Below, piece by piece: positions 5,608 through 28,183 of a stretch of 64,000 nt of DNA. The notes below the pieces were generated by a model. It saw nothing but the letters and a program-made list of their open reading frames with translations, was not told the origin of the DNA and made no database searches. Origin of the DNA: a virus; IMG/VR virus record IMGVR_UViG_3300036760_000150, positions 82,674-146,673 of that record. The stretch is one strand, 5' to 3'. Position numbers and translations under genes: made by a program. The first letter of the stretch is position 1. Every line of letters begins with the position of its first letter.

Positions 5608-6492
5608 ATGTCTGAATATAGTCGTACAAAACCTATCCCAAATCGTAACTATCCATCAAAAAGTGTAGTTGGTGGTGTTGCTGGTTTTTCACGTGTAGAA
5701 GCCATGTTAACAGTAGATAGATTACGTCAAGAATTTTTGTTCGGTATACCATTAGTTTCTTTCATCACGAAGGAGACCCTTAAGGACGAAACTATCAGGA
5801 ACATCTTGAATCGTGCTGCTGCTCGCGTAGAGCTTGAGTGTAAGATCGACGTCACTCCTGTGCAAAGAGAGGGTCATTTTCCATTTGATAGAGTTAAATT
5901 CCTGCAAGGATTCAACCAGATCGACCTCAGCAACGTGCCACTCAGGAGTCTTGAGGAGTTCTCAATTCGAGCAGTCAACAGTGCGAACACGCCAGACAAC
6001 GTGAGTGGTGGAGGTCCTGACGGTAAAGGGACGGTTATATACACCCTGCCACTTGATTGGATTGACCTATCACAATCACATAAAGGTATCTTGCATGTGT
6101 TCCCATTGATCAGCACGTTCACCGGTACTGGTCAGGTTGCCGCTGCAGTCATGGGGCCGTCAGCATCTCTGTTCATGAACTTGATACATCAGACATATAT
6201 GCCTGCTTATTGGTATGTCCGTTGGACGTCAGGGTTTGACGAGAATGCCGTTCCTGCAACGCTGAATGAACTTATAGGTTGTTTTGCTGCCTTAGAGATC
6301 TTGAGTTTGATCGGTCCTCTTCGTCTATGGAACTCACAGAGTATCAACATCGACGGATCTGGACAATCTGTAGCAGGACCAGGTTCGCAACTGTTCAAAC
6401 AACGTATAGATGAGTTGACCAGTCGTATCGCTGAGCTTAAAGATCTGATCAAAGCACGCTTTAGCCAGAAGATCGTGATGGTTCATATCTAA
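5608..6492 (+). CDS. Putative head-tail adaptor/neck protein
   Basis: Adaptor-like pattern (ARVELECKIDV...YVRWTSGF...PATLNELIG...SQSINIDGSGQS) and position in the late operon. Confidence 0.6.
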   Translation: MSEYSRTKPIPNRNYPSKSVVGGVAGFSRVEAMLTVDRLRQEFLFGIPLVSFITKETLKDETIRNILNRAAARVELECKIDVTPVQREGHFPFDRVKFLQGFNQIDLSNVPLRSLEEFSIRAVNSANTPDNVSGGGPDGKGTVIYTLPLDWIDLSQSHKGILHVFPLISTFTGTGQVAAAVMGPSASLFMNLIHQTYMPAYWYVRWTSGFDENAVPATLNELIGCFAALEILSLIGPLRLWNSQSINIDGSGQSVAGPGSQLFKQRIDELTSRIAELKDLIKARFSQKIVMVHI

Positions 6493-6496
6493 AGTT

Positions 6497-9400
6497 ATGG
6501 AAGATAGTAATCGCAAAGACATCTTGACATCAAAAGATATCAACGAATCGTTGACGTCAGATGATACCAACTTAGAGAAGTCGGTGAATACCAAGCTTGT
6601 TCATCTAGCTACTATAGCCTCACTTCTCGGTGTCCCGTACTCTTCAAACATGCAGCCACCTAAAGCTGTGGCGGCAGCTCCAGCAGTTGTCCCCAGCGCC
6701 ACCCCTCATCCCGGTCTTGAGCCCATAGCGTACATGGAGTCCAGGAATGGTAGGAACCAGAGGCACAAGCTTGTGACATGGGGCCTCAACTCTGGAACCA
6801 AGGCTGTAGGCAAGTACGGCCTCATGCCACTGACTGTCCACGAGACTGCCAAGCATGACAGCACCATCGGCAGGATGTACCCTGAGTTTAAGACTCTAGA
6901 CCCTATCAAGGATCACGACAAGTACGAGAAGATCTTGCTTGCCAACCCGCAGGTGCAGGACCACATCGCCAACTCACACTGGGGTAGGTTGACTCGCACC
7001 TTCGGTAAAGACAAGAACAGGGCAGTCTACGCCTGGAAGTACGGCATCACAGGTGCCAAGACTGCATCACATAGCGATGTTTCGTCTGCTCCTTACGTGA
7101 GGGAGTACAACAAGCATCACAACATGCTGAATGTTCAGACCAAGAAGAGTCTTCGCAAGTCAGAGTTTCAGCTGCCGCAGCACTTCAGTTTCATATCAGC
7201 TCAACGCGGTGGTGATCACAACCATGACGTACATCAACGTCTGTACCAAGACCTGAGAGACTCAGGGTTCGACCCCGTTGAGGTGACGGGCCACTACGGC
7301 TACCAGGAGAGGTCTTTCCTAGTACCACACACAGGCTCTGCTGTCGATCGCAACAAGGTCGAAGATCTAGGCAGGAAGTACAATCAGGAGAGTGTGTTAC
7401 ACTCGTCCGACTTGAACAACGAGCTGGTCAACCTAGAAGATCCAACGAAGAGTATGAGGGGTTCTGGCATCAGCAACGATTACAGTGATGCCATGTACAC
7501 CGAGCTGCCTGGTGGTAGTAGATTTAAGTTGAACCTAAGGAAAACAGAGGTCCTTGAGAAGGCTGACGGACAACCTAACCCACAAGCTCGTCAGGTGGCA
7601 GAGGGTTACGCCAACTCAAAAGGTATCAAGCTGCGGCGTCTGACTCCGGTTAAGGTAAACCCACAGTTCGCGACGCATGTCGCTGGCGCCTACGAGAAGA
7701 TGCCTCACTCTCCTAGCAGTCCAGACACCAAACGTTCATACGACGCCTTGATCAGCGAGACGCTGGATCAGTTCCAACACATGAAGAACGCAGGCCTTAA
7801 GATATCAAAGATCAAGCCTGGCATGGAGAACCCCTACAAGTCTTCAAAAGACTTGTTCCATGACGTTCAGCACAACAACCACATGTGGTACTTTCCAACT
7901 GAGAGTGGGTTTGGATCATCTGAAACTCGTAGCGACCATCCTATGCTTGCTCCAACAGAAGAGATGCATGAGGGCAAGCCGATGCTTGCGAATGATGTGT
8001 TCAGGGTAGTTCATGATTACTTCGGACATGCAAAAGAAGGTCATGCCTTTGGCCCCAACGGGGAAGAGAACGCCTGGCAGACTCACGCTCAGATGTACTC
8101 GCCGGAGGCTAGACGGGCAATGACCGCCGAGACTCGTGGACAGAACAGTTGGGTTAACTTCGGGCCGCATGCTGCACACAACAGGTCAAACCCACACCAA
8201 ACTGTATACGCTGATCAGAAGGCTGGGCTGTTGCCTGACTGGGCTCATGCAGTAGATCCTACACAGGCGTTTAGTAAATCAGAAGATGATGATAAAGTTC
8301 TCTACCACTACTCACAGCATCCTGAGCCGTTGAAGATCATAGACCCTGTCTTCCACGGTACTGGTTACCCTGGTGCTGAAGGCAAACGTGACGACAGAGT
8401 GGCTCGTGCGTACTACTACGACACACCGACGGGTCATGAACCTGATGTTATCTCTGGTGCTACGCATATGTACACTGTGAAGCATCCAGGCAACATACTT
8501 GACGTCGCCAGCGAAGAGGCCGAACCGTTCAAAGAGAAGGCTCGCAACCAATATGGTATCATAGACTACTCAGACCTTGAGCGTCACATGAAAGATGCTG
8601 GGTACAACGGTTACAAGAACACAGCGAGCGCCATCCCTAACGCAGTCGCTTTGTTTCATCCTCAGCAGGTTGATGAGTCGAGAGATCTACGTAAGTCGGA
8701 AGAGCTTGAGAAAGCATCTCATAACGTGCGAGAACAAAAGGCTAAGGTATTCGGCACAAAAGCTAATCCTCCTGCTGGATCGCAGATGCGTGAGAAACAC
8801 ATCGAACACATCAACAACTTCGCCAAGAAATTCCTTAACCTAGAGATCCGTCCTTCAGGCGGTAAGATCAACGAGGCAACAGGACAGAGACGATCTGAGA
8901 GTCCTAAGATAGGTACCGACAAACCGGACTGGAGAAGTGGTCAACTTGAAGCTCAATGGAACCCGGAAGCTATCATGCATGAGCTTGCACACCTTATGTT
9001 GCTACCTTCAGGTGTTGGCTTAAAAGAAGGCCAAAGGCTGATGGACAAGCAGTACGGAGAGGTTCAAAGTAAATACGGATATATGCAGCAGAAAAGATCT
9101 CAGGGTGAGGTACAACCTATGGCTGCGGAGCAGATCATACGTAGACACCTAGGTCTTCCAGCCAGTCGAGTGAGCATTCCTGTTGAGTCGAAAGATGCCC
9201 CACCTAGAGTGTCAGTTGAAGCTCCAGATGTGGTTATAGGTACACGAGTTCCACAACCCACTAAGAGTGGTGCAGTTAAATGGGTCGATCTGATCAGACA
9301 GTCCCGCCTTTTGAACACAGAGAATCGAAAGAGGTTGGAAGATATCTTTAGTGGTAACATCAAATTTCATCCAGAGTTGGGTTGGATACCGAAGAAGACA

Positions 9401-11098
9401 TCTATATCCACACAGAAGCCCAAAGATGAACTGCCTACTGGATTGGTCAACGATGATGTCGAACCTTCTAAACTTGCGTCTAGCGAGAAAGTATATACAT
9501 CAGACGTCTTAGAAAAAGGCGTTAAACAAAGGCTGTTCTACTTTAGTCCTGCAGAGGTGCCAGAAGAACATAAGCAGAAGGTGGCACAGTGGACAGATCC
9601 ATTAGAGACAAATATATCTGGTGACAGAGAAGTGATACCTAGATTAGAAGGAAATGCTAGGATGAGGGCTCTGCATACTTTATCCAGCAAAACAAAGACT
9701 AGATGGAATCCTGATAAAAAAGAGAGAGAATTTTTATTACACCGAGGAGTGTCTGGAAGTGAACACAATCGTGTAATAAATAACGGACATGTAGAACATC
9801 CTGGTAAATCTTCGTGGTCTCCCAAACATACAACTGCCGTTAATTGGATGGATCAATATGGCGGTCTTGCTGATGAAGACCCCAGTGTACTATCTGCGTG
9901 GATACCAGAATCTAAGATACATCATGTTCCTATGCAGATTGGTGCCACAGAAAGAGTAGAGACCGTTAAGCCGGGTAATAAAAGATTTTCGCCAACAGGA
10001 AAGTTACAAGGTCCTATGGAGTGGCGCAACGAACACGAAGTGATCGTTGATCCTGGTAGTCATAAGGTGGCAACTGAAAAGGAAGTTAAGTCAACCGACA
10101 AGACCTCTGAGCCTACCGACATCAACGAGCGAATCAACCGTAAGATGACCAAGTCTGAGTATGATCCTGCCAAAGACGTCACAGCCTTCACATCTTTCTC
10201 TACAGAGCCTGGCGACATAGAGCTTGTGCGAGAGATCAACGAGATGATCGAGGCTGGTCACACCAGGCCGCTAGGTGAGAAAGGCTTGTTCACCGAGGAT
10301 AGCTTCGTCGTCGGAGAGAAACCAGATAACTCTTGGCTTATCAAGGTTGAGGTAGGAAACACGCCCGGCATTAAAGCTGTTCAGTACACCGGCCCTCAGT
10401 CTGTTAAAGAGGCCGCCTTCTACAAGGCCTCAGAACAAGTGTTCGGTCTGTCTCGCTTCGTGCCCAAGTCTGTGCTCGGTGAGGTGCAGACCAAGGACGT
10501 ACCCAAACTGGCGGTGGCCATCAAGATGCTGCCTCCTGAGTTCAAGAACGCCGCCGAGACAGAGGGTGACATCAAAGGTATGATGAAAGGTCTCCTTGAG
10601 AAGTACAAGGAGGCAGGTCTCTCTCACATGCTTGCGTTCATGCTCTACGTGTTGGGCGACCTCGATGCCCACGGCAACAACTTGATGACAGACGGGTACA
10701 ACGTCGTGTTGATAGATCATGGCAGCTCGTTTGCCGACCTGTCTTCTGAGGACAAGTCTGACAAGAAGCAGTTCGTACCTTACATCTTGAGGCATGAGGG
10801 TTTCAAAGGTAAGTTGTCTGACAACGACAAGCAGTCTCACATGCCGTTGATCGATAGCCCCGAGATAAGGGCTAACTTGAAAGAGTACATCATGTCTGTA
10901 GATCCTAAGAAGTTACATGACGTCGTAGTCAGCTACGGTCTAAATCCGGTACCATCAGTCACACGTCTTAAGGTCGCGCAGAAGATGCTTGAGCACTCAG
11001 ACCACCCTGACGTATTAGTGAACTACGTTTGGATAAAAGGTGCACCTGCGGACCTAGTTGAAGAGCAAGAAGGAGTCGCACATGAAGTTGGAGCCTGA
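6497..11098 (+). CDS. Polyvalent multi-enzyme protein (SLT-like, DUF3293-like, HDxxGH domain, ART-like, HExxH peptidase, R-S-E ART, PI3/4K-HipA-like kinase)
   Basis: Motifs: IAYMES...AVGKYGLMPLT...AWKYG; FISAQ...YNQESVL; FRVVHDYFGH...GEENA; LYHYS...RAYYY...AGYNGY; HELAH...EVQPMA; LHRGV...SSWS...EHEVIV; LIKVE...KEAAFY...DLDAHGNN...IDHGSSF. Confidence 0.85.
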   Translation: MEDSNRKDILTSKDINESLTSDDTNLEKSVNTKLVHLATIASLLGVPYSSNMQPPKAVAAAPAVVPSATPHPGLEPIAYMESRNGRNQRHKLVTWGLNSGTKAVGKYGLMPLTVHETAKHDSTIGRMYPEFKTLDPIKDHDKYEKILLANPQVQDHIANSHWGRLTRTFGKDKNRAVYAWKYGITGAKTASHSDVSSAPYVREYNKHHNMLNVQTKKSLRKSEFQLPQHFSFISAQRGGDHNHDVHQRLYQDLRDSGFDPVEVTGHYGYQERSFLVPHTGSAVDRNKVEDLGRKYNQESVLHSSDLNNELVNLEDPTKSMRGSGISNDYSDAMYTELPGGSRFKLNLRKTEVLEKADGQPNPQARQVAEGYANSKGIKLRRLTPVKVNPQFATHVAGAYEKMPHSPSSPDTKRSYDALISETLDQFQHMKNAGLKISKIKPGMENPYKSSKDLFHDVQHNNHMWYFPTESGFGSSETRSDHPMLAPTEEMHEGKPMLANDVFRVVHDYFGHAKEGHAFGPNGEENAWQTHAQMYSPEARRAMTAETRGQNSWVNFGPHAAHNRSNPHQTVYADQKAGLLPDWAHAVDPTQAFSKSEDDDKVLYHYSQHPEPLKIIDPVFHGTGYPGAEGKRDDRVARAYYYDTPTGHEPDVISGATHMYTVKHPGNILDVASEEAEPFKEKARNQYGIIDYSDLERHMKDAGYNGYKNTASAIPNAVALFHPQQVDESRDLRKSEELEKASHNVREQKAKVFGTKANPPAGSQMREKHIEHINNFAKKFLNLEIRPSGGKINEATGQRRSESPKIGTDKPDWRSGQLEAQWNPEAIMHELAHLMLLPSGVGLKEGQRLMDKQYGEVQSKYGYMQQKRSQGEVQPMAAEQIIRRHLGLPASRVSIPVESKDAPPRVSVEAPDVVIGTRVPQPTKSGAVKWVDLIRQSRLLNTENRKRLEDIFSGNIKFHPELGWIPKKTSISTQKPKDELPTGLVNDDVEPSKLASSEKVYTSDVLEKGVKQRLFYFSPAEVPEEHKQKVAQWTDPLETNISGDREVIPRLEGNARMRALHTLSSKTKTRWNPDKKEREFLLHRGVSGSEHNRVINNGHVEHPGKSSWSPKHTTAVNWMDQYGGLADEDPSVLSAWIPESKIHHVPMQIGATERVETVKPGNKRFSPTGKLQGPMEWRNEHEVIVDPGSHKVATEKEVKSTDKTSEPTDINERINRKMTKSEYDPAKDVTAFTSFSTEPGDIELVREINEMIEAGHTRPLGEKGLFTEDSFVVGEKPDNSWLIKVEVGNTPGIKAVQYTGPQSVKEAAFYKASEQVFGLSRFVPKSVLGEVQTKDVPKLAVAIKMLPPEFKNAAETEGDIKGMMKGLLEKYKEAGLSHMLAFMLYVLGDLDAHGNNLMTDGYNVVLIDHGSSFADLSSEDKSDKKQFVPYILRHEGFKGKLSDNDKQSHMPLIDSPEIRANLKEYIMSVDPKKLHDVVVSYGLNPVPSVTRLKVAQKMLEHSDHPDVLVNYVWIKGAPADLVEEQEGVAHEVGA

Positions 11099-11737: not shown

Positions 11738-12616
11738 ATGTCAGACTCATCAGATAGAAAACCAGAAGATAGGGTAGATATACCAATACAGTACCATGAT
11801 CCCTTTGAGGCCGTAAGAACTTCTCTTGACGCCGAAGGCTCTTTCATCTCAAACAACGGAGTGTTGTTCGCTCACTGGAAAGCCATGCCGTGTGTAATCG
11901 GTCAAAAAGATCTGGATGGCATAAGGAAAAGTTTTGACCATGCTTACGAGAATGCTGGATGTCCGATGAAGTGTGAGAACGGTTTTTCATACGAGTTCTC
12001 TGGCTACGTCTATGGAATCTTTGTTAGTAACTCGAAGAACTCGGCCAAGATGCCAGGTGGATTCGTGCCTAACGGCCAAGCATACGTCACCCTTAATAGG
12101 TACTACAAGAACACCGAGACATCAGCCTACTTCAGCGAGTACGACAAGCTCATACCTCACGAGTGTCCTGAAGACTTCAAGGCTGAGAATTTCCAGAAGT
12201 TCCAACATAACCCTAGCGGCGTAGACCGTCTTCAGTTCCCTGCTCACAAAGTTCAGTTCCTACACGACTCTGACGGCAAGAGGTACACCCAAGACGTCGA
12301 CTTCACCGTGGTAGACGGTCAGATAAAGTGGGGAGACAACCGTCCTGGATTCGACAACCAAGGTAAGCCTAAGATCTGCTCTGTCAGGTACACGTACCAA
12401 CCGTACTACTACGTGAAGTACGTGCTGCACGAGCAGAGGCTTAAGGTGCAGGTTGATCCTTACACCCAGGAAGGAAAGGTCAAGACAGGTCCTACACAGT
12501 GCCTAGTCGAGCAGGACTTCGTGTTCCTAGACAGCAGGTTCAAGGACAACCAGAAGGACAGCCAGCTCGAGTCGGGCAAAGGCGGCAACAGCGGGCCTGA
12601 GTACGGGCCTCGTTAA
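11738..12616 (+). CDS. Putative neck/head-completion protein
   Basis: W-x-A-x-P-C...CxxxC-x-N-G-F N-terminus and beta-rich body, reminiscent of neck proteins of SPO1/Twort-like myoviruses. Confidence 0.55.
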   Translation: MSDSSDRKPEDRVDIPIQYHDPFEAVRTSLDAEGSFISNNGVLFAHWKAMPCVIGQKDLDGIRKSFDHAYENAGCPMKCENGFSYEFSGYVYGIFVSNSKNSAKMPGGFVPNGQAYVTLNRYYKNTETSAYFSEYDKLIPHECPEDFKAENFQKFQHNPSGVDRLQFPAHKVQFLHDSDGKRYTQDVDFTVVDGQIKWGDNRPGFDNQGKPKICSVRYTYQPYYYVKYVLHEQRLKVQVDPYTQEGKVKTGPTQCLVEQDFVFLDSRFKDNQKDSQLESGKGGNSGPEYGPR

Positions 12617-13081: not shown

Positions 13082-14029
13082 ATGCGATACGACAAGCTAC
13101 TTAAGTCTGTGATGGGTGAGGACCTCTACGAGAGTCTTCACAAAGCCCTGCAGAAGCTGACGACAAGCTCTGTCGTCGACATAGGCGAGTTGTACCACAG
13201 CCTCAAGGTTGCCCCCAAGGCGGTGGTAGCCTTCCTGGTTCGCGAGCTTAAAGACATGAAGGACGCCAAGGAAGTCAAGCTACCTTGGGCTGAGAACGCA
13301 TCGATGCTGGTCAACAAACTAGACAGTGATGTGTACCAAGGTCACATCGTCGAAGATGGTCACATCAAACATGAGTTTCGACTGTCATCTCTACCTGCCC
13401 TGGCGGCTCACCTAACCTCTCATTTTGAACTATACGACGAGGACCAGGAAGAGGAGGCTAAACCTGATCAGTTAGATGACGGTAAAGTCAAAGCTCTTGA
13501 GTCTAAACTCAACCAGCTGCAGATACAGGCCCTTGAGGCTAAGATAAACAGCCTGATGGCACTTGTCTCTGCTAAGGTGACACAGCCAGTGGTGAAGGTA
13601 GACGACCTCAGCAAAGCTGGTCTCATGCCTAAGATGCCCTCACCTCCCAAGCCTGGGATCAAGGTAGGCGGCAACCAGGGCATAATGACGGGTGGTGTGA
13701 AGGGCGACAAGACCGCAGCCACCGACAGGATGAGTAAACCCGTCAAGTCTCTCATCGGTAAACCGATGCTGAACACACCTCCTGTTAAGTCTAAATTGTT
13801 GACGTTCAACAAGTCCGACATGATGAAGAACTGCATGGAGTGCAGAAAAAATGAGTTTGATAAATCTGGCAACTACACTGGATGTGATTGTTGGAAAGGG
13901 ATGAGTAAGCCTAAGGTAAAGAAGAGTGATTCTGACACTGTAACTATTGAGCTACCTCAAGATTGGGACTCCGACGCCGTCGTCGCATTGATAAGGTCTG
14001 TGAAGAAGTATGGAAGAGAGTCAAACTGA
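13082..14029 (+). CDS. Hypothetical virion-internal protein with multiple xxKS/KA motifs and a C-terminal Zn-ribbon
   Basis: LLKS, LHKA, LSKA, FNKS and VKKS motifs; CMEC...CDC. Confidence 0.7.
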   Translation: MRYDKLLKSVMGEDLYESLHKALQKLTTSSVVDIGELYHSLKVAPKAVVAFLVRELKDMKDAKEVKLPWAENASMLVNKLDSDVYQGHIVEDGHIKHEFRLSSLPALAAHLTSHFELYDEDQEEEAKPDQLDDGKVKALESKLNQLQIQALEAKINSLMALVSAKVTQPVVKVDDLSKAGLMPKMPSPPKPGIKVGGNQGIMTGGVKGDKTAATDRMSKPVKSLIGKPMLNTPPVKSKLLTFNKSDMMKNCMECRKNEFDKSGNYTGCDCWKGMSKPKVKKSDSDTVTIELPQDWDSDAVVALIRSVKKYGRESN

Positions 14030-14882
14030 CAAGGTAGTTGCCATAGTCAGCGTCTACCTGTCAAATCAGATAAAAGACGACGACGATCTACGTGACCAGA
14101 ACATGTATGTCAGTCGTCTTGAGAAGTTATGTCATGCCGTCGTGGTAAGCAAAGGTGGACAGGTCACACCTGTGCCTGCTGCCATGGGTATGGGCGACGC
14201 GTTCAAACTAGACATCCCCGTCGATGAGATCACATGCGTGAAACAGCTTGTCTGTCAGGCCAAGGAAGACGAGAGTCTACGTCTGTGTGTTGGTCTAGGA
14301 CATGACATAGTAGAGGCTAAGTACGCACTAGAGCATGCTATGCTTGAAGGACCATGCTCCATAGTCGTCTACCACCCTGACATGGAACCTAAAGAAGAGG
14401 TCAAGAAGTCAGAGCCTGAGCGTGAGAAGGCTCTACAGATACTGCAGACCATCAAGCAGAACATGCAGGTGTTTGAGAAGATGAAGCAAGAGAACCCTCA
14501 GATGTACTCGCATGTGTTAGAGACGCTTAAAGGTCTTGTGCAGGCTGTTGGCTCCAAGAAAGGTCACGCCGACAAGATCAACAACACTGGTGATAACATA
14601 CAAGATCTGATAGACAACGTTCAGTCAGGCTACGAAGACGACGATCAAGATGCAGCCCAAGAAGCTGTGGATGCCCTACCTAAGCCTGACGCTGTTCCTC
14701 AACAACCGCAACCTGCAGAAGAGCAGCAACCTCAAGTTGGCCTCAACAAACAGCTGCTTGCTGCTGCCCTTAGACAGGGTGGCAAGACAGATGATTCTCG
14801 TCCAGACTTCAGCGATAGTGAAGATCCTGAGTTCATGGAGGCGCTGTACGACGTCATAATGAGTGGAGACACAAGTGCCTAA
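14010..14882 (+). CDS. Protein with a degenerate mCpol/GGDEF-like palm domain, VKKSE motif and acidic tail
   Basis: KGGQV...GMGDAF...P...LCVGLGHDIVEAKYALEHAMLEG resembles the palm-domain pattern GG...GGD...SVGVG...EA..AL..AK..G. Confidence 0.5.
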   Translation: MEESQTDKVVAIVSVYLSNQIKDDDDLRDQNMYVSRLEKLCHAVVVSKGGQVTPVPAAMGMGDAFKLDIPVDEITCVKQLVCQAKEDESLRLCVGLGHDIVEAKYALEHAMLEGPCSIVVYHPDMEPKEEVKKSEPEREKALQILQTIKQNMQVFEKMKQENPQMYSHVLETLKGLVQAVGSKKGHADKINNTGDNIQDLIDNVQSGYEDDDQDAAQEAVDALPKPDAVPQQPQPAEEQQPQVGLNKQLLAAALRQGGKTDDSRPDFSDSEDPEFMEALYDVIMSGDTSA

Positions 14883-17800
14883 GATCCAGAAGATGCCAGC
14901 TGCAGAGGCTGAGCAACATGTAAACAACCTGAGCTTGCCCGCCAGCAAGTTGGCCGAGATAGCTGGTCAGCACACAGACAACCCTGAGATCATGCAGGCT
15001 ATCGCTAAGCATCCTAATGCCGGACCTCAGGCCCTAGACATAGCCTACAGGTCAGATATGGCTGACAGTGCCCTTGAGCACCCTAACGTGTCGCAGAAGA
15101 CTGTCGAGCATGCGTTCAACAGGTTCGTTGAACCAAACGAGCCTAAAGATCTTGAGTACGAACATAAAGACATAGCACTTCATCCCAAGTTGCCTCAAGA
15201 AAAGAAAGACACTTTGGTCATGAAGATCATGAACTCTAAAGACAAAGGTACTTGGAGTGACATGATAGCTAACAATTACTTTGACAAAGGTCATGCTTCA
15301 GAGGCTATGGTACAGCATGCACTTCAACACCCGGATGTTGACTACACAGCTCATGCCTTACAGTCTCCCACGGTGTCAGATGAGCATGTTAAGACTGCAG
15401 CGGCCAGGAAAGACTTTGACTACGAGCAAGCCAAAAAGGCGATTGAGAACAAAGCCCTGTCACCTGAGTCTATAGCTTTCTTGTACAACAAGTTCAGGGG
15501 CAAAGAGGGTGAGAACACCTACTGGCGAGATAAGATCGAAGGTAACCTGACAGAGAACCCCAACACCCCACCTGAGATAATCAGCAAGCTTGCGAGTAAG
15601 CGTAGTCCTCACCGTCGCGATGCCATGCAACACCCAGCTTTTCCCGAGAAAGAGTTGCACAACATGGTCAAAGAAGGTGACGAGGATGCCATAGATGCAG
15701 CGTTGCCTCGCAGCGACACACCTGAGGAAGTACTTCGTCACATACACGCACACCTGCCAGATGACGCAAACTACAAGTGGGGTAAAGGAAGATCTTTGGT
15801 CAGGCATCCTAACTACCCAGAGGATCTTCAACTTAAGAGTGCTAAAGGTAGCACAGATGAGGCCAGAGCCTTACTTAAGAGGGAGCAGCTGTCTAAGCCC
15901 GTCTTAGATCAACTTGTGAGCCACAAGAACACCAACCTGGCTGTCGATGCTTTGAAGCATAAGGCAATCACTCCAGAGACAGTGTTGCTGGCGTACAACA
16001 GGAAAGCTAAAGATGTCGCTGGTGCTGCTGGCCTACATCGTCTGTTGCCCAAAGAGTTGAAGATCAACCGAGCTGTCGAGAACGAAGACACAGCTGTAAA
16101 ATTAGCCGACATATCAAACGACAAAGATGTCCTTAGGTCTATCGCTGAGAGGTGGGGTAACAAAGATTCAGTTCGTGGAAGACTGTTACGTAACCATAAC
16201 TTAGACGGTGACACCCTGCACAATCTGGTGAGTCACCAGATCCAGGCCACAGGTAGTCGAGCGACTTATTTTCCCAACAACTTAGATGAACATCCCAACA
16301 TGAAGCCTGAGACTCGCATGATGATGATCAAACATCCAAGTGCTTCATACAAGGCTTTCTCTCACATCAACTTGACCCCAGATGAGGCTAGAGAAGGCCT
16401 TCGTCACTGGGCAACTGAGGATCGCGACCTAGCTGGCGACTATGCTACTGGACTTCTCACTCATCCTAACACAGATCCTGAACTTGCCAAAGAGATCGTC
16501 TCTGGTACATACGGGAAGCTTAACAACCGACAGCTGCGTTCAGATGAGCTTGAGGAGTTCGTCAAGTCGCATCCTTTGGTGTACACCAAAGGTGTTGTCA
16601 AGGCTGCCCTTGAGACTCCTCACGAGTTGACTGACAAGAACGCCGTTGGACAGATCGCCAAGGGTGCTGATAGCTTGTCTGCCAAAGACATAGCTGAGTA
16701 TGTAGATGGCGTCAAGAAGATGAAGTTCGGCGGTGATCGTGACAAAGAAGATTTCTACCATTCAGTAGCTGTGGACATGGTTAGAAATCCTAATGCAGAT
16801 CCTCATTTTTTAGTTGGACTTGTAGATAGGTCACTCAATAACAGTCAACAGACACAGCATGATATCAAACTTGCCAATGCTGCCATACACAACCCAAGCT
16901 ACCCTAAAAAACATCTAGAAGAGATCATAAGACACCCCAAGTTCCCTGAAGACAACGGTAACTTACGTGGTGACCTAACAGGTTTCATAAAAGATAAGAT
17001 CTACGAACCTGAGATGAAAGAACTCAGAGACAAAGCGTTGGTCGAGTCTAATCATCCTCAGTTCGTTACAGATCTACTAACTACTAGGTTTAAAGACCAA
17101 GAGGACCCCAAGCTAGTCGAGAAGGCTCTCTCTAACCCACACCCTGAAGTTGTAAAAGACGTATTGGGCTACCTGTCTAACAAGTCAACGCAGATGTCAG
17201 GCGCTAATGACTCACGCAGCAGGCAGATAAGAGACTACGTAGATCAACTTGCAGACCACGCAGATCCGTCAGTGCGAGCTGCTGCGTTTGAGATGATGTC
17301 TCCAGAGGCACAAGCTAAGATGACCCAAGGTCAAGACTTGATGTCAAACCCAGAACTCATACAAGGCTTATCAAGAGAGAACGCCGAGAAGTTGAAGATA
17401 GAGTCACATCATAGTTTGGACGCTATCCAGCAGCTCCTAAAACATAAGTACGCTCATTGGCAGCATTTTGAGCAGGCAGTTAACCACTCCCAAGAAGGAG
17501 CTGAGCTAGCACATAAGATATTATCTGCTAAGATCGAAGGTGAGGATCGTCCATCAAAGAAAGACGTAGAAGGTCTAGGTTACATACAAGAGAAACTACT
17601 TGATAAGTACTCAGACTCCTCTGCCTCAAGGTTCATAGCTAGAACCACACCCAACACACTTGTGCTGGACAAGATAGTCAACGACCCTCGTCTGTTCAAC
17701 AAGTTTGGTGGTAACATAACAGAAAACGACCATGCCTTGTCTCGTCACCTTGACAGCTTCACTAAGTTGAAAGGTGAGAGTCACGCCAGCCTGATGAGCG

Positions 17801-20679
17801 ACCTGGCCGCTCATCCTAAGGCTAGCACGAAGCTGCTGGAGCACATCGCTGCAAACTACCCAGAGGAGATGGTCAAGGTTGCAGGACATCCAAAGGCTTA
17901 CTCAAGCAAGGTGCTTCGTACCATACTTACATCAGGCAACAAAGAGGCTATAAAACAGGTAGCCAACAACGACAAGGTACCTGACGAGGTCAGAGAGCAG
18001 CTAAAACGTGACCCTGAGATCATGTTGAATTTAGATGGTAAGTATGTAACTCCCGACGATCTTACCAGAGCTGTCCCTGAGGCTGACGCGCATAGGCTAG
18101 AACAGATCGTAGACCATCGATCAGCAAACGATGAAGTGTATAATAAAGTCCTTGATGCGGTTGATAGTGGTAGGTTCTCAGACGAAGAGAAACAGATCAC
18201 ACTGAACAATGTGGCGGATAAGCGAAACTTGAGTAAGACAACCATAGATAGGATCATAAGTCATACTAACGCCACTTCACGCAGCATATCTCATGTGTTG
18301 TCTAAAAACAATGTGGATAACGAGCAGTTCAACAAGATCGTGGATAGGTTCGACTCTGATCAACCAGTTATGGCTTACCTTGCCGATAACTTGTCATCAT
18401 GGCGCGACGGAGATGTTGGCCAAGCAGCAGATAGACTTATTGACCACATCGATGTTGGAGCAGAACCAAATCTGGTCTCTCAACTTATAAGTAACCAGCA
18501 TGGTAAACTGCACCCTCAGTTCTTCGATAAAACTCTTAGCAAACTTGAGGCCGCACGAGGACCTCAGTACCAGTACACAGACAAGCCTAAGAGTATGTTA
18601 GAGTCTGACGGTGAGCTACTGAGTCATATCGCAGAGTTCGCACCTACGTCGTTGCATGGTAAGTTGGTGCAGTACCCAGAGTTACAGCCGATGTTGTTGA
18701 GGTCTGGCAATATTAACAAGACCTCGTATGACAAGATGGTAGAAGATCTTCCAAGATTGCATGAGATAGCTGCTAAGTCTGACAGCGATTACTTGAAGAA
18801 ACGTTTTGTCGAAGAACATATTAAACGTCTGGTAGATAGCCCACACTCTGATGAGTCTGCCATCAACTTGATCTACAAGACTATGGTTGACAAACAGACG
18901 CCTGAGGAAAACGGTGTGATGGTATCAGCCATACTATCATCTCCTAAAGCACCATCTAAGCTGATAGATGACATGTTTAAGGCTGGCAACATCAGGGCTC
19001 TGCGTAGTCCTAAGTTATCTAGGCATATAGTTGATGAACAACTCTCTAACCTGACAATGACCAACTCTGAAGATCTGGCTCAGAACCCCAACGTGTCTAT
19101 GGGTGATCTTAACAAAGCCGTAAAAGATAAACGAAATTCTCCAGTTGCTTACAGAGATGCATACGGCACGATGTTGTCTCGACCCTCCTTGAGGTCAGAA
19201 GACCTTGAGCAATTATATGATATGTTCTCAAAGAACAAAGGTGCACTTCCCACCGAAGATCAAAATTACCTCACCAAGAGGATCATCCAACGTCCTGAGG
19301 TGACTGAGTCTATATTCAACGATGCCTATGGTAAAGGCCTCATAACTAATGATCAAGCGTACTCCAACCCTAAATGGGGTGGTCGTCTGTTCAGGGCTAT
19401 GGATCACAGAGTTCCAAGTGGTGTTCCCAACTTGACGACTAAAACTCCTGTGACTAACCAGCAGGTGTTGAAGCCAAGAATGGAGAAGCTGCAGTCAGTC
19501 GCCTCCATGGTACCACCTGAAGGGTACATAGACTGGGCCACCTTCAAGAAAGATAACCCCTCTATGGCTGGTGACCCTCTTGTGCAACGCATGTTCACGT
19601 CTGCCCCTAAGCAGCGACTTACGCAGGAGCATGCGCAGAAGTACCTGTCTGAGGTTCCTGGCAAAGAGTTTCACATGTCTTACACAAAATGGACAGGCAT
19701 GCAGCGTCATAGGTCTGTGCCACAGTTGGTTGTCCAGGTGAACAACGGCTCTTTCATGGACGACGTGCTTGCCAAAGACCCTGAAGCTTACAGGCTGTAC
19801 TCCTTCATGCAGCAGGCGTCTAAGAACTCCGGTCATCCTACCACTCCTCAGTCTATAGGTTGGTCTCGCGTCGACACTGGTGATAAGGATCACTGGTTCA
19901 TCGATGAGGTACAATCAGATTTTGGTGCTGGCGTTGCTAGGGAGCTGAGCAAGATACAGGAGAACCCAGAGCACGCAACTGCGTTTGCTAGCAAAGTTGG
20001 TATACCTGTCGAGAAGGCTCAGAAGGTTTTGCATAGGTTGGTCGACGTCATGCAAGGGTGGGATCGTGCGTTGGTGGAGCACGTGATCGATCTCGCTAAG
20101 CGTAACGGTGTCAAGCAGGTTTCTATGCACTCTGGTAAGTCTAAGACTGTCACCAACAAAGGTGGAGAGTCCGAGATCACGAACAAGTACGACAAGCTGT
20201 ACAACAAGATGCCTCAGGAGATGGGATTCCACGGTGACTTCTACAAGAACTTACCTGTGGCTACCGATAAATCATTGATGGAACAACCTGTATGGACGTT
20301 GAACATCCCTCAGGAGATTAAGAAATCTGAGTACGACGAGAGGTCTGTGTTGGTCAAAGCTGGCCAAGTCATATCGAAGCTCAAGAATGAGGAAGTTCAG
20401 AACTACTCACCGGAGGCGTTCCAAGCTGCTCTTGAGGCTGTCCAGGCTCTGGTGCAGGTCTTGAAAGAAAGTGGCTACACATCTCCAGGGCATGCCGACG
20501 TAAACAACCATCCGTCGGTTCCAGGAGAGACTTCGCCTAGACCTAAGGAAGATAAGCCGCTGACACATCAGCATAAGATGTACTCACCAGGTGCCGTTCG
20601 CATGTACGACAGCCACGAAGAGCGTCAGAAAACTCCAGAAGGCAAGTGGGTCAACGTCAGCAGGCAGGGTGATACATGA
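14863..20679 (+). CDS. 1938-aa protein: long alpha-helical (A/L)xxHPN repeat solenoid plus a C-terminal EVQSD/GNAT-like domain
   Basis: Many repeats such as IAKHPNA, ALEHPNV, LTENPNTP and LLTHPNTD. The C-terminus has IGWSR...FIDEVQSD...ALVEHVIDLAKRNGVKQV...KLYNKMPQEMGF, then IKKSE. Confidence 0.8.
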   Translation: METQVPKIQKMPAAEAEQHVNNLSLPASKLAEIAGQHTDNPEIMQAIAKHPNAGPQALDIAYRSDMADSALEHPNVSQKTVEHAFNRFVEPNEPKDLEYEHKDIALHPKLPQEKKDTLVMKIMNSKDKGTWSDMIANNYFDKGHASEAMVQHALQHPDVDYTAHALQSPTVSDEHVKTAAARKDFDYEQAKKAIENKALSPESIAFLYNKFRGKEGENTYWRDKIEGNLTENPNTPPEIISKLASKRSPHRRDAMQHPAFPEKELHNMVKEGDEDAIDAALPRSDTPEEVLRHIHAHLPDDANYKWGKGRSLVRHPNYPEDLQLKSAKGSTDEARALLKREQLSKPVLDQLVSHKNTNLAVDALKHKAITPETVLLAYNRKAKDVAGAAGLHRLLPKELKINRAVENEDTAVKLADISNDKDVLRSIAERWGNKDSVRGRLLRNHNLDGDTLHNLVSHQIQATGSRATYFPNNLDEHPNMKPETRMMMIKHPSASYKAFSHINLTPDEAREGLRHWATEDRDLAGDYATGLLTHPNTDPELAKEIVSGTYGKLNNRQLRSDELEEFVKSHPLVYTKGVVKAALETPHELTDKNAVGQIAKGADSLSAKDIAEYVDGVKKMKFGGDRDKEDFYHSVAVDMVRNPNADPHFLVGLVDRSLNNSQQTQHDIKLANAAIHNPSYPKKHLEEIIRHPKFPEDNGNLRGDLTGFIKDKIYEPEMKELRDKALVESNHPQFVTDLLTTRFKDQEDPKLVEKALSNPHPEVVKDVLGYLSNKSTQMSGANDSRSRQIRDYVDQLADHADPSVRAAAFEMMSPEAQAKMTQGQDLMSNPELIQGLSRENAEKLKIESHHSLDAIQQLLKHKYAHWQHFEQAVNHSQEGAELAHKILSAKIEGEDRPSKKDVEGLGYIQEKLLDKYSDSSASRFIARTTPNTLVLDKIVNDPRLFNKFGGNITENDHALSRHLDSFTKLKGESHASLMSDLAAHPKASTKLLEHIAANYPEEMVKVAGHPKAYSSKVLRTILTSGNKEAIKQVANNDKVPDEVREQLKRDPEIMLNLDGKYVTPDDLTRAVPEADAHRLEQIVDHRSANDEVYNKVLDAVDSGRFSDEEKQITLNNVADKRNLSKTTIDRIISHTNATSRSISHVLSKNNVDNEQFNKIVDRFDSDQPVMAYLADNLSSWRDGDVGQAADRLIDHIDVGAEPNLVSQLISNQHGKLHPQFFDKTLSKLEAARGPQYQYTDKPKSMLESDGELLSHIAEFAPTSLHGKLVQYPELQPMLLRSGNINKTSYDKMVEDLPRLHEIAAKSDSDYLKKRFVEEHIKRLVDSPHSDESAINLIYKTMVDKQTPEENGVMVSAILSSPKAPSKLIDDMFKAGNIRALRSPKLSRHIVDEQLSNLTMTNSEDLAQNPNVSMGDLNKAVKDKRNSPVAYRDAYGTMLSRPSLRSEDLEQLYDMFSKNKGALPTEDQNYLTKRIIQRPEVTESIFNDAYGKGLITNDQAYSNPKWGGRLFRAMDHRVPSGVPNLTTKTPVTNQQVLKPRMEKLQSVASMVPPEGYIDWATFKKDNPSMAGDPLVQRMFTSAPKQRLTQEHAQKYLSEVPGKEFHMSYTKWTGMQRHRSVPQLVVQVNNGSFMDDVLAKDPEAYRLYSFMQQASKNSGHPTTPQSIGWSRVDTGDKDHWFIDEVQSDFGAGVARELSKIQENPEHATAFASKVGIPVEKAQKVLHRLVDVMQGWDRALVEHVIDLAKRNGVKQVSMHSGKSKTVTNKGGESEITNKYDKLYNKMPQEMGFHGDFYKNLPVATDKSLMEQPVWTLNIPQEIKKSEYDERSVLVKAGQVISKLKNEEVQNYSPEAFQAALEAVQALVQVLKESGYTSPGHADVNNHPSVPGETSPRPKEDKPLTHQHKMYSPGAVRMYDSHEERQKTPEGKWVNVSRQGDT

Positions 20680-25351: not shown

Positions 25352-28183
25352 ATGGCGCTACAACAAGTCAATTCTGATGGCTCGGTACTTATTGTCCCGT
25401 CGTCATCTGTAAACATAACGGTTGCCACACAACCCACTGGTATCGCCACAAGTGGCATCTTAGCATTACTTGGTGAGGCGGACGAAGGTCCTGCTTGGAA
25501 CGACTCAGGAGAGAGTCTGTCAAGCCTCAGCTTTAGTCCTGTTGACAGCGATCGTGTCGCTGCCAAGTTCGGCTCAGGCCGTCTCGTCGACGCATTCAGG
25601 AACATCGGTCAACCCTCAGCTTCTCCTAAGGTCGGTGGTGGTCCTAACAGGATCATCCTCATCAAGACGAACTCGTCCACAAAAGCCTCCAGCACAACTG
25701 CTGATAGTTCTGGTACGTTCAGCGCCAAGCGTGCTGGACAGCCTGGGAACCTCATAAAATACAGCATCTCAGACAACGTCTCTGAGTCTGCTCCTACCAC
25801 AGACTCTTTCTCCTATGTGCCCTCGTCATCTTCGTCAGCTCTGGCTGCCAGGGTGAACGGTGGGTCTAGGCAGACCTTGTCTATCTCTGCCAACACTACT
25901 CCTACAGCGTTGGCCGCCTCTATAACGGCGCTCTCTAACTTGAACGCCGTAGGCGGCATCAACCGGAGTGTTCTCTCTGGTTTGTCTGGTCAGAACATCA
26001 GCCTGACAGTTGTGTCAGGTCAAGTCGTCGATATAGCGCTTGCTCTAGGTCAAGTTTTCGCAACCGCACCTCAAGTAGGTGACACTGCTCGCATACCTGC
26101 TGGATCAGTTATAGAAGGTGGTTCTGCTGAGAACGTAGGTTGGTACCTCGTGACGGCAGTCGTCAACACGACCTCGACGGCCAAGATCACTGCGACCAAG
26201 ATCACCTCTGGTGCTCCTGCCAACGTGGCAGCGACCCCTATCTCCGGCACCCCAGACAACGACCTTATCGACTACAGCTACATGAGAGTCGACGACATGA
26301 GTGGTGAGAACCGTAACATACTCACCGGTCTGGTTGGTCAGACAGCAACTGTGACTGTGGCAAGCTCTAGCTTGACGTTCACCCTGGCCTCTGGTCAGGT
26401 GTTCCCTTCGTCTCCTAAGATCGGTGACATAGTCTACATCCCATCAGGCTCTGCGTACCAAGGTGCAGGTAACGCCAACGTAGGTTGGTACTCTGTCACC
26501 TCGGTCAGCAACACGACCTCGTCAGCATTCCTGACCGCATCTCGGTTGTCAAATGGCAACCCTGTCGCTGTCGGCTCCACAGCCATCGTAGCTACGTCTG
26601 ATGTCCAAGACTACAGACGTGACATCGACGGTGTAGGTAAATCCCTTGAGATCCGTGACAACAGTGGCACCGTGAGTATCACGACCATATTAAAGCAGCT
26701 GGGTGTCAACTCATCTGTCACGTGGATCAGCTCCTCGTCATCGCCTCAACTCCTCGTCTCAGGCGCTGAGATGCAGAAGTCCGTCAGGTTGGTGAGAAGC
26801 TCCACGAACAGCTCTGAGACGTTCAACATCGGTGGTAACATATCGCTTCAGGTGAGCTACCAACCTAGCTCTACGTCTGGTACAGCTACCTTGACCATCT
26901 TGACGTCGTCTGGCACACGTAGACTTCAGACCTCTGTGTCTGGTGGTCCTGGTGTCAACCTAGACATCGACCTCAGCACGGTGCCTACGATCAACGACCT
27001 AGTCAACATAATCAACTCCAACACTGGCTACAGTGCCCAGGCGTTCACCGCCACTGAAGGACAGAGAAGCACCATGGTCCTTGACCAAGTGACAGCTATG
27101 GGTATCTGCACAGAGCTTGGAACCAAACCTGGCCGCATCAAGTCTGACCTCTACGACTTGACGCTGGGTCAGTCAGGGTTCAGGAACTCTGTACTCATCA
27201 CGTACTCGTCAGCGTCGCTCGCTGGCCTGCCCGAGTCTCAGTCTGACACATTCCTCTCTGGTGGAGCTAAAGGTGCATCTACCGGTCTTCAGTTCTCAAA
27301 CGCCATCGATGCGTTGAAATCTGTCAGATGCAACTTCGTCATCCCGTTGGTCAGTCAAGACGCGTCTGACGATGCTGCTGATGGTCTCACAGATGGATCT
27401 TCCACCTACCAGGTGGACGCTGTCAACCAACTCGTGAAGTCTCACGTGTTGGCTATGTCGACGCCTAAGATCAAACGTCACCGCATCGCTGTGGTGTCCA
27501 AGAAGGATACCTTCGACAACGCGAAGCAATCTGCTCAGAACATGTCTAGCTTCAGGGTCGCCCACACGTTCGAGGATGTGCTAGGGGTAGGGTCTGACGG
27601 TAACACCAAGCAGTTTCAGCCTTGGTTAGCAGCAGCTACAGCTGCCTCGTTCCAAGCTGCCGCGTTCTCTCGCACTATCTTCAACAAGGCCATCAACATC
27701 AGCGGTGCCCTTCAGGACGCTGGCGATTGGCACGACGAGAACGTCACAGACGTAGAGAATGCCCTACTCGCAGGTTTGCTGCCAATCGTTCGACAGTCTA
27801 ACGGTCAGTTGGTGTTCGCAAGTGACCAGATGACGTACGGTGTCGACAACAACTTCGTCTACAACAGCATGCAGGCTGTGTACACCTCAGACCTCATGGC
27901 TCTGAGTCTCGCTGACAGTCTCCAGACAGCTTTCGTCGGTGAGGTCACAGCTGATGTCACACCTGCTGCAGTCATCGCCTTCATCAAGTCTAAGATGATC
28001 GAGTTTTTGAACCTCAAGTTCACGGCCTCGACAGACAAGTTCCCCGCTGGATGGAAAGATATAACCGTCAACATCAGTGTACCTTCAATGTTCGTTAAAG
28101 TAGTTGCCATTCTATCAAGTGGGATTTACTTCATTCCTATCGATCTTGTCATTGAAGGTGTAAGTTCCAGTGCGGCTGCTTAA
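25352..28183 (+). CDS. Contractile tail sheath protein (enlarged)
   Basis: N-terminal GILALLGEADEGP...FGSGRLVDA, central FLSGGAKG, C-terminal FIPIDL; immediately followed by a tube-sized gene. Confidence 0.9.
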   Translation: MALQQVNSDGSVLIVPSSSVNITVATQPTGIATSGILALLGEADEGPAWNDSGESLSSLSFSPVDSDRVAAKFGSGRLVDAFRNIGQPSASPKVGGGPNRIILIKTNSSTKASSTTADSSGTFSAKRAGQPGNLIKYSISDNVSESAPTTDSFSYVPSSSSSALAARVNGGSRQTLSISANTTPTALAASITALSNLNAVGGINRSVLSGLSGQNISLTVVSGQVVDIALALGQVFATAPQVGDTARIPAGSVIEGGSAENVGWYLVTAVVNTTSTAKITATKITSGAPANVAATPISGTPDNDLIDYSYMRVDDMSGENRNILTGLVGQTATVTVASSSLTFTLASGQVFPSSPKIGDIVYIPSGSAYQGAGNANVGWYSVTSVSNTTSSAFLTASRLSNGNPVAVGSTAIVATSDVQDYRRDIDGVGKSLEIRDNSGTVSITTILKQLGVNSSVTWISSSSSPQLLVSGAEMQKSVRLVRSSTNSSETFNIGGNISLQVSYQPSSTSGTATLTILTSSGTRRLQTSVSGGPGVNLDIDLSTVPTINDLVNIINSNTGYSAQAFTATEGQRSTMVLDQVTAMGICTELGTKPGRIKSDLYDLTLGQSGFRNSVLITYSSASLAGLPESQSDTFLSGGAKGASTGLQFSNAIDALKSVRCNFVIPLVSQDASDDAADGLTDGSSTYQVDAVNQLVKSHVLAMSTPKIKRHRIAVVSKKDTFDNAKQSAQNMSSFRVAHTFEDVLGVGSDGNTKQFQPWLAAATAASFQAAAFSRTIFNKAINISGALQDAGDWHDENVTDVENALLAGLLPIVRQSNGQLVFASDQMTYGVDNNFVYNSMQAVYTSDLMALSLADSLQTAFVGEVTADVTPAAVIAFIKSKMIEFLNLKFTASTDKFPAGWKDITVNISVPSMFVKVVAILSSGIYFIPIDLVIEGVSSSAAA

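Follow-up and report, generated by a model that had tools for sequence, protein, structure and literature searches.

A probable polyvalent cargo polyprotein of an Mx1-like myovirus carries the predicted capsid maturation site at its module joints

The stretch of DNA analyzed here (the window) consists of 64,000 nucleotides (nt), positions 82,674 to 146,673 of the IMG/VR virus record IMGVR_UViG_3300036760_000150, and forms the end of one phage contig of 146,673 bp. On its plus strand, the open reading frame (ORF) at positions 6497 to 11098 is open throughout and encodes a protein of 1533 amino acids (aa), P0001, in which seven homology blocks with differing family affinities lie on one chain, as in the polyvalent proteins of phages. 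The gene is placed between two virion genes (phrog_772 and phrog_1004) and upstream of the tail sheath gene, which is a late/virion setting, and the gene order around it is the same in the relative locus L003. The closest cultured relative of the phage is Myxococcus phage Mx1 (OR576727.2), the capsid proteins of the two being 53% identical, with the SPO1-like Bacillus phages more distantly related. We interpret P0001 as a polyvalent cargo protein whose gene belongs to the late structural operon of a myovirus of the Mx1 type, and the Lys-type motif found at the joints between its modules as the predicted maturation site of the capsid protein of the same phage. The features concerned are collected in Table 1; the head genes form a module just upstream of the window, and their coordinates are those of the genome.

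Table 1. Features of the polyprotein gene and of the late and head genes around it. Positions are those of the window unless marked as genome; a slash marks the bond that would be cut.
Feature	Position	Strand	Remarks
Polyvalent cargo polyprotein gene (P0001)	6497-11098	+	open frame; 541 homologues with shuffled domain content
Leader, aa 1-28, ends LEK/S (aa 26-29; LEKS at nt 6572)	6497-6580	+	orthologues have LEK/G or LEK/S at aa 9-24
Module 1, aa 74-190, SLT/lytic-transglycosylase-like	6716-7066	+
Joint LRK/S, aa 219-222	7151-7162	+	kept as IRK/SEFQ, INK/SEFQ and IKK/SE in P0002, P0003 and P0004
Module 2, aa 232-343, SAM-lyase/DUF3293-like	7190-7525	+
Double joint LRK/TEVLEK/A, aa 347-356 (LRKT 347, LEKA 353)	7535-7564	+	two-part form recurs in homologues
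Module 3, aa 360-585, widespread phage domain	7574-8251	+	phrog_3170, E 4e-18
Joint FSK/S, aa 592-595	8270-8281	+	most homologues have hydrophobic-x-K-S-E at most ~25 aa past module 3
Module 4, aa 602-723, small conserved domain	8300-8665	+	38 homologues
Double joint LRK/SEELEK/A, aa 731-740 (LRKS 731, LEKA 737)	8687-8716	+
Module 5, aa 740-963, HExxH metalloenzyme-like	8714-9385	+	H-E-x-x-H at least 90% conserved
Joint LEK/G, aa 1005-1008	9509-9520	+	at conserved N terminus of module 6
Module 6, aa 1005-1190, R-S-ExE ADP-ribosyltransferase-like	9509-10066	+
Joint MTK/S, aa 1217-1220	10145-10156	+
Module 7, aa 1228-1526, PI3/PI4-kinase-like	10178-11074	+
Late gene upstream, 294 aa, phrog_772	5608-6492	+	ends 4 nt before polyprotein gene
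Virion structural gene downstream, 292 aa, phrog_1004	11738-12616	+
Tail sheath	25352-28183		downstream of polyprotein gene
Large terminase	genome 70852-72765
Portal	genome 73817-75793
Prohead protease, phrog_1028 (E 4e-8)	genome 76897-77841		between portal and capsid genes, outside window
Scaffold-like protein, charged, low-complexity	genome 78462-79415
Major capsid protein, phrog_752	genome 79427-80830

The borders of the seven modules were taken from the segment ends of BLASTP matches to 119 homologues and are independent of the motif. An earlier note on this DNA, made from the letters alone, had claimed that a recurring motif falls at each domain boundary, and the independent borders bear this out: all nine motifs that it listed lie at their coordinates in P0001, and every module junction, together with the N-terminal leader, carries a site, with Gly at P1' in the module 5/6 junction. 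Furthermore, the AlphaFold models of modules 3 and 5 start and stop within a few residues of the flanking motifs. The enrichment over shuffled sequence on which the same claim depended was also found. L[ER]K[SAGT] occurs 7 times in P0001 (0.28 expected from shuffles and 0.40 at the rate of the remaining proteome), whereas only 12 copies are spread over the 46,285 aa encoded elsewhere in the genome, and a looser form of the motif occurs 11 times where approximately 4 to 5 copies were expected (P = 0.0016). Since these patterns were defined after seeing the data, a motif derived from capsid proteins only, [LIMVF]-x-K-[AST], was also applied; of its 10 sites in P0001, 8 lie outside the homology blocks, which leave 16.4% of the residues uncovered (binomial P = 1.7e-5). 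When residues were shuffled within the linkers, 1.4 sites were expected and 7 were observed (P = 3e-4). The excess survives this control, and the K/S/E-rich composition of the linkers is therefore not the explanation. Module 7 contains loose matches missing from the earlier list (FYKA at 1308 and MMKG at 1362, as well as VPKS at 1322 if V is allowed).

The capsid protein of this phage begins with M-Q-E-V-I-Q-K-I-E-E-L-R-K/A-L-E-A-G-G, and ELRK/A occupies residues 10 to 14. In RefSeq, the mature capsid protein (Cps) of the SPO1-like Listeria phage A511 is annotated from residue 24, after E-D-A-L-K (K23/S24), and alignment with MAFFT places this bond in the same column as LRK/A of the present phage and of Mx1. 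Among 102 representative capsid proteins (25 to 55% identity), the sequence hydrophobic-x-K/[AST]-hydrophobic-x-[AT]-G is almost invariant. The K column is occupied by K in all but one of them, the exception being R, and is followed by A, S or T, while the leader that precedes the site ranges from 6 to more than 40 residues. The prohead protease is homologous to that of A511 (E = 1e-9; LGYSVEG vs LGFSIEG). As judged from these sequences, the joint motif of P0001 is the predicted capsid maturation site. The earlier note had proposed to look for a capsid protein and a prohead protease elsewhere in the genome and for the same motif at the capsid propeptide, and each was found, the propeptide as a prediction.

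The motif is not confined to the capsid protein and P0001. Across the genome, [LIVMF]xK[SAT][ED] is observed 39 times with 21.5 expected, and the excess resides mostly in the polyprotein itself (6 copies, 0.67 expected), the scaffold-like protein (5, 0.5 expected), the portal (3, 0.35 expected), the protease (2, 0.27 expected) and a late protein of 315 aa. The 102 capsid sites of other phages were also used to train a position matrix, which was scored over 46,516 positions. Five other head proteins were enriched in high-scoring sites, accounting for 11 of the top 100 (3.5 expected; P = 0.0009), and the SEELEK/A site of P0001 ranked 7th among the 46,516 positions.

Domain content varies widely among the 119 homologues, of which 112 carry module 3, 40 module 6, 38 module 4, 30 module 1, 16 module 2, 15 module 5 and 5 module 7. 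Relatives also carry GNAT, NUDIX, VTC, mCpol and Zeta toxin domains, and homologues sharing module 3 carry LPD3, LPD22, LPD38 and ART-PolyVal. No tripeptide recurs 3 or more times within a single homologue as often as KSE, which does so in 31 of the 119 (2.9 expected), and P3 of these copies, the second residue ahead of the Lys, is hydrophobic in 69% of cases. In most homologues, hydrophobic-x-K-[SKN]-E followed by hydrophobic-x-K-[GAS] is found after module 3 and before module 6, and the N terminus of module 6 retains hydrophobic-x-K-G-[AS]-x-x-R in approximately 40 homologues, usually after K-S-E or K-R-E. In P0002, P0003 and P0004, each site is retained although the surrounding linker diverges, and sites are re-created at junctions that are absent from P0001, namely, that of modules 2 and 4 in P0002 and that of modules 4 and 6 in P0003.

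The same sites also separate the parts of proteins that include the protease itself. P0068, P0070 and P0077 to P0079 are prohead proteases in which cargo modules are inserted before a copy of the capsid N-arm, with the sites lying between the parts, and P0079 fills the protease slot behind the portal gene. The prohead protease of Mx1 is likewise a protein of 1239 aa consisting of protease and cargo modules, and the portal tail, the scaffold-like protein and the polyvalent proteins of Mx1 have the same sites, including the two-part LEK/SEQWLAK/A. With regard to the protease of the present phage, its C-terminal part (approximately residues 218 to 258) contains a copy of the capsid N-arm (KLKK/ALTAGGSNVPPGNLTNGSAL vs LRK/ALEAGGMNAAPGTLTQGSAL), and this copy is present also in Mx1 and in P0078 and P0079.

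We propose that P0001 would be built into the prohead, where the serine prohead protease would cut hydrophobic-x-K/[S/A/T/G] behind its Lys, both at the leader and in all six linkers that separate the modules. This would free about seven enzymes, comprising an SLT-like product (residues 29 to 221), a SAM-lyase-like product (222 to 349), the orphan module (356 to 594), module 4 (595 to 733), the HExxH module (740 to 1007), an ADP-ribosyltransferase (ART)-like product (1008 to 1219) and a kinase-like product (1220 to 1533), which would leave the virion together with the DNA and serve to open the wall and to weaken host defenses. A joint code that is the same as the predicted capsid maturation site implies that a separate enzyme, the prohead protease, would cut in trans. 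Based on the sequences, we think it probable that P0001 is packaged in the head and processed to individual enzymes, and we favor the prohead protease, with moderate confidence, as the enzyme that would cut the joints. The 28-aa leader is a possible propeptide or targeting peptide.

A number of observations weigh against this proposal. In A511, Leu is found at P2 and not at P3, and the motif patterns applied to P0001 are partly post hoc. With the capsid-trained matrix, the polyprotein as a whole is not enriched (3 of the top 100 vs 3.2 expected); the matrix, whose top list also includes sites in unrelated proteins, is a weak predictor. Only SEELEK/A fits the extended capsid consensus well, most joints having Glu and not a hydrophobic residue at P2', and two or three matching sites lie within module 7. 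No targeting signal was identified in P0001, and a literature search found no virion proteome or biochemical data for Mx1 or this phage. Finally, some large virion proteins are packaged uncut, an example being N4 vRNAP (Iyer, Burroughs, Anand, de Souza and Aravind 2017, PMC5512222).

The case of N4 vRNAP raises the possibility that P0001 also remains intact in the virion, with the motif acting as a conserved linker or as a peptide that docks to the scaffold, the portal or the capsid interior. Cutting in this phage is predicted from sequence, the linkers are rich in K, S and E, and the protease itself bears an uncut-looking copy of the capsid N-arm that could serve docking. However, conservation is position specific at P3, P1 and P1', the motif equals an A511 bond that carries an annotation of cleavage, its enrichment persists after the control for linker composition, and the double sites are just 6 residues apart. 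We regard an uncut P0001 as unlikely.

As for the individual modules, the SLT-like, DUF3293-like, R-S-ExE ART, PI3/4-kinase-like and HExxH labels proposed in the earlier note are supported at the level of leads. Searches of P0001 against Pfam gave no LPD, ART-PolyVal or MPTase signature family above the cut-off, and PDB sequence searches, run both for full-length P0001 and for a profile of module 3, returned chance-level matches only. In module 1, E81-S82 and a G-x-Y-G-L-M-P motif are conserved in 30 sequences, and the nearest Atlas clusters are viral SLT proteins (score 0.93 to 0.94); there was no match to Pfam. The segment between the leader site and this module (aa 29 to 73, window positions 6581 to 6715) is hydrophobic over a short stretch, LVHLATIASLLGV, includes a spacer rich in Ala and Pro, and may associate with membrane or wall. 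Module 2 of P0001 falls just below the cut-off for PF23780 (25.5 bits; cut-off, 28) and also for PF11697 (23.7 bits), and its orthologues in P0002 and P0003 score above the cut-off with 36.8 and 32.2 bits, respectively. Across 52 sequences of module 6, conservation reaches at least 90% at H1082-R1083, S1106-W1107, E1179 and E1181, and Pfam gave no match. Module 7 has a match to PF00454 at aa 1377 to 1418 (E = 0.075; 13.4 bits vs a cut-off of 27.1) and one to the NCBIfam RisK1 PI3-kinase (E = 0.004), and the homologous module of P0025 matches PF00454 with an E value of 1.2e-5 (25.8 bits). The identity of module 4, which the earlier note had called ART-like, is not established; BLASTP relates it weakly to a part of P0086 other than the ART-PolyVal match of that protein, and no conserved catalytic triad was found.

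Module 3 contains an invariant H-D..H..E..H pattern with the motif H-D-Y-F-G-H. Its AlphaFold2 model is of high quality (predicted local distance difference test [pLDDT] score of 95.4), but comparison of the model with PDB gave no fold match (Foldseek E > 0.6; VIA Z ≤ 2.6; minigluzincin zymogens, Z 2.3 to 2.4), and among Atlas clusters only unnamed viral ones were matched. As the module has neither HExxH nor a fold match, the label "zincin-like" given to it earlier is unsupported, and the model points to an orphan fold. The module has 880 short homologues at 50 to 65% identity and occurs as a standalone protein in cluster-C mycobacteriophages. Among the standalone proteins P0132 to P0168, of approximately 350 aa, many have a conserved leader of approximately 24 aa that ends with L-L-[SN]-K before the domain, and a hydrophobic, Ala/Gly-rich C-terminal tail is also seen. 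The AlphaFold2 model of module 5 (pLDDT of 94.4) had no Foldseek match in PDB, and its best structural matches, both below the safe level, were to YfcM (4pdn, Z 6.0) and the ArdC metalloprotease domain (6sna, Z 3.8).

These two modules bear on the possibility that P0001 cuts itself, i.e., that the HExxH module 5, or module 3, recognizes the joint motif and frees the modules before or after injection. Such a mechanism was proposed by Iyer et al. 2017 (PMC5512222) for polyvalent proteins that bear peptidases, and both the near invariance of HExxH in module 5 and its weak resemblance to ArdC agree with it. Module 3, in contrast, shows neither a peptidase motif nor a matching fold, and P0002 and P0003 lack it yet retain sites. 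Module 5 is absent from 104 of the 119 homologues, and 59 of these 104 have no HExxH at all, yet 14 of the 59 have at least 3 sites. Because many motif-rich homologues lack module 5, self-cutting by this module is unlikely in general. Self-cutting would also leave unexplained why the scaffold-like protein, the portal and the protease contain the same motif and why it marks the predicted capsid maturation site. We therefore rejected an embedded peptidase as the general mechanism, and we consider it quite improbable for P0001 as well.

Bonds that follow Lys are cut by many trypsin-like enzymes, which counts in favor of cutting that is delayed until after injection and is carried out by a host protease or an enzyme injected along with P0001 rather than in the head. 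This route was considered by Iyer et al. 2017 (PMC5512222), but it is very improbable here, as the motif co-varies with the capsid lineage of the phage rather than with the domains and also occurs in head-assembly proteins, which remain in the head throughout.

The Lys-type motif is absent around module 3 in two polyvalent proteins of other capsid lineages, those of Planktothrix phage Pag-Yong1 and of a contig with an SU10-type capsid, and sites are present at a density of 0.34 per 1,000 aa in this other group, compared with 2.1 in homologues on contigs of 128 to 173 kb. The polyvalent proteins that accompany SU10-type capsids (P0103 at L010:5910-12365 and P0105 to P0117) are without the Lys motif. 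They contain a recurrent [RK]-[FYM]-M-P-E, sometimes doubled (MPEAQRAMPEG), which is absent from neighboring genes and may be a second joint code. As a tentative generalization, for which we claim somewhat less than even likelihood, the prohead protease of the Mx1/SPO1-type lineage would double as a polyprotein processor, with hydrophobic-x-K/S-E as a plug-and-play joint. Modules flanked by it, whether free-standing or fused to the protease, would be loaded, released in the head and injected, and other capsid lineages would use codes of their own, such as M-P-E in the SU10-type contigs.

In the surroundings of the polyprotein gene, the 315-aa late protein (window positions 13082 to 14029) has two K-[SAT]-[ED] sites, with 0.3 expected, and the second-best capsid-type site of the genome, VDDLSK/A at aa 178. 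Farther downstream lies a late ORF of 1938 aa (window positions 14863 to 20679) that has no PHROG match and has a 1961-aa counterpart at the equal position in L003; it contains one high-scoring capsid-type site, MGDLNK/A at aa 1418. Just upstream of the window (genome positions 81467 to 82238), a pair of overlapping ORFs, each with a match to HNH homing endonuclease families, looks like a split or frameshifted homing endonuclease gene adjacent to the capsid gene. A sigma-factor-like protein (genome positions 67598 to 68884), in which L[ER]K[SAGT] occurs three times, was considered as a candidate for the capsid protein and rejected. A megablast search for near-identical sequences among phage records and a pattern scan of viral contigs gave no match.

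Polyvalent proteins are widespread counter-defense arsenals of phages. The joint code offers a concrete mechanism for the separation of their modules, cutting in trans by the prohead protease, that would predict the exact mature enzymes and explain the free swapping of modules between relatives. It would also provide a sequence rule by which packaged effectors can be found in uncultured phages. Mx1 can be cultivated, which makes the idea directly testable. Module 3, apparently an orphan fold present in hundreds of phage proteins, would be a priority target.

Processing of head cargo by prohead proteases is known from T4 gp21, which acts on the internal proteins and Alt, from phiKZ gp175 and from SPN3US gp245, and the cargo is ejected into the host. 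As in T4, phiKZ and SPN3US, a short motif is common to the capsid protein, the scaffold-like protein and a candidate packaged protein in this phage, which encodes a prohead protease; here, the likeness is known from sequence alone, with ELRK/A in the capsid protein and LRK/S, LRK/T and LEK/A at the joints. However, the proteases of those three phages cut after Glu, while the bond predicted here follows Lys. Moreover, they typically remove a propeptide from proteins with a single function, whereas one chain would yield about seven different enzymes in this case. In A511, the capsid protein and the protease are homologous to those of this phage, and the cleaved bond follows Lys in the same alignment column, although the P3/P2 pattern differs (A-L-K/S). 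The 293-aa gene that follows the A511 capsid gene resembles the phrog_772 gene by size and product name alone, and, unlike in the present phage, nothing comparable to the polyprotein was seen where A511 was read between the capsid and tail genes.

Iyer et al. 2017 (PMC5512222) defined the polyvalent proteins, likened them to the polyproteins of RNA viruses, and invoked embedded peptidases (MPTase and, rarely, an assemblin-like domain at the C terminus) for their processing. P0001 resembles these proteins in that many unrelated effector domains, including lysozyme-, ART-, kinase- and peptidase-like modules, are carried on one chain, are shuffled among relatives and are encoded beside virion genes. 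It differs in having a conserved joint code that matches the capsid maturation site; no joint motif is described in the 2017 paper, in which the word "linker" occurs 0 times, and our literature search found no paper on a Lys-type motif in polyvalent proteins. As regards the polyprotein strategy put forward in the earlier note, the analogy itself is not new, while the interpretation is partly supported by a motif that is shared with the capsid, scaffold-like, portal and protease proteins and is conserved in orthologues and protease fusions. What is new is a conserved, lineage-specific joint code equal to the predicted capsid maturation site. Mx1 shares with this phage the ELRK/A capsid site, a pair of polyvalent proteins (1479 and 619 aa) and a scaffold and portal with the same sites. 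In contrast to the present phage, the prohead protease of Mx1 itself bears approximately 1000 aa of cargo, and the domain content differs, with NUDIX and others.

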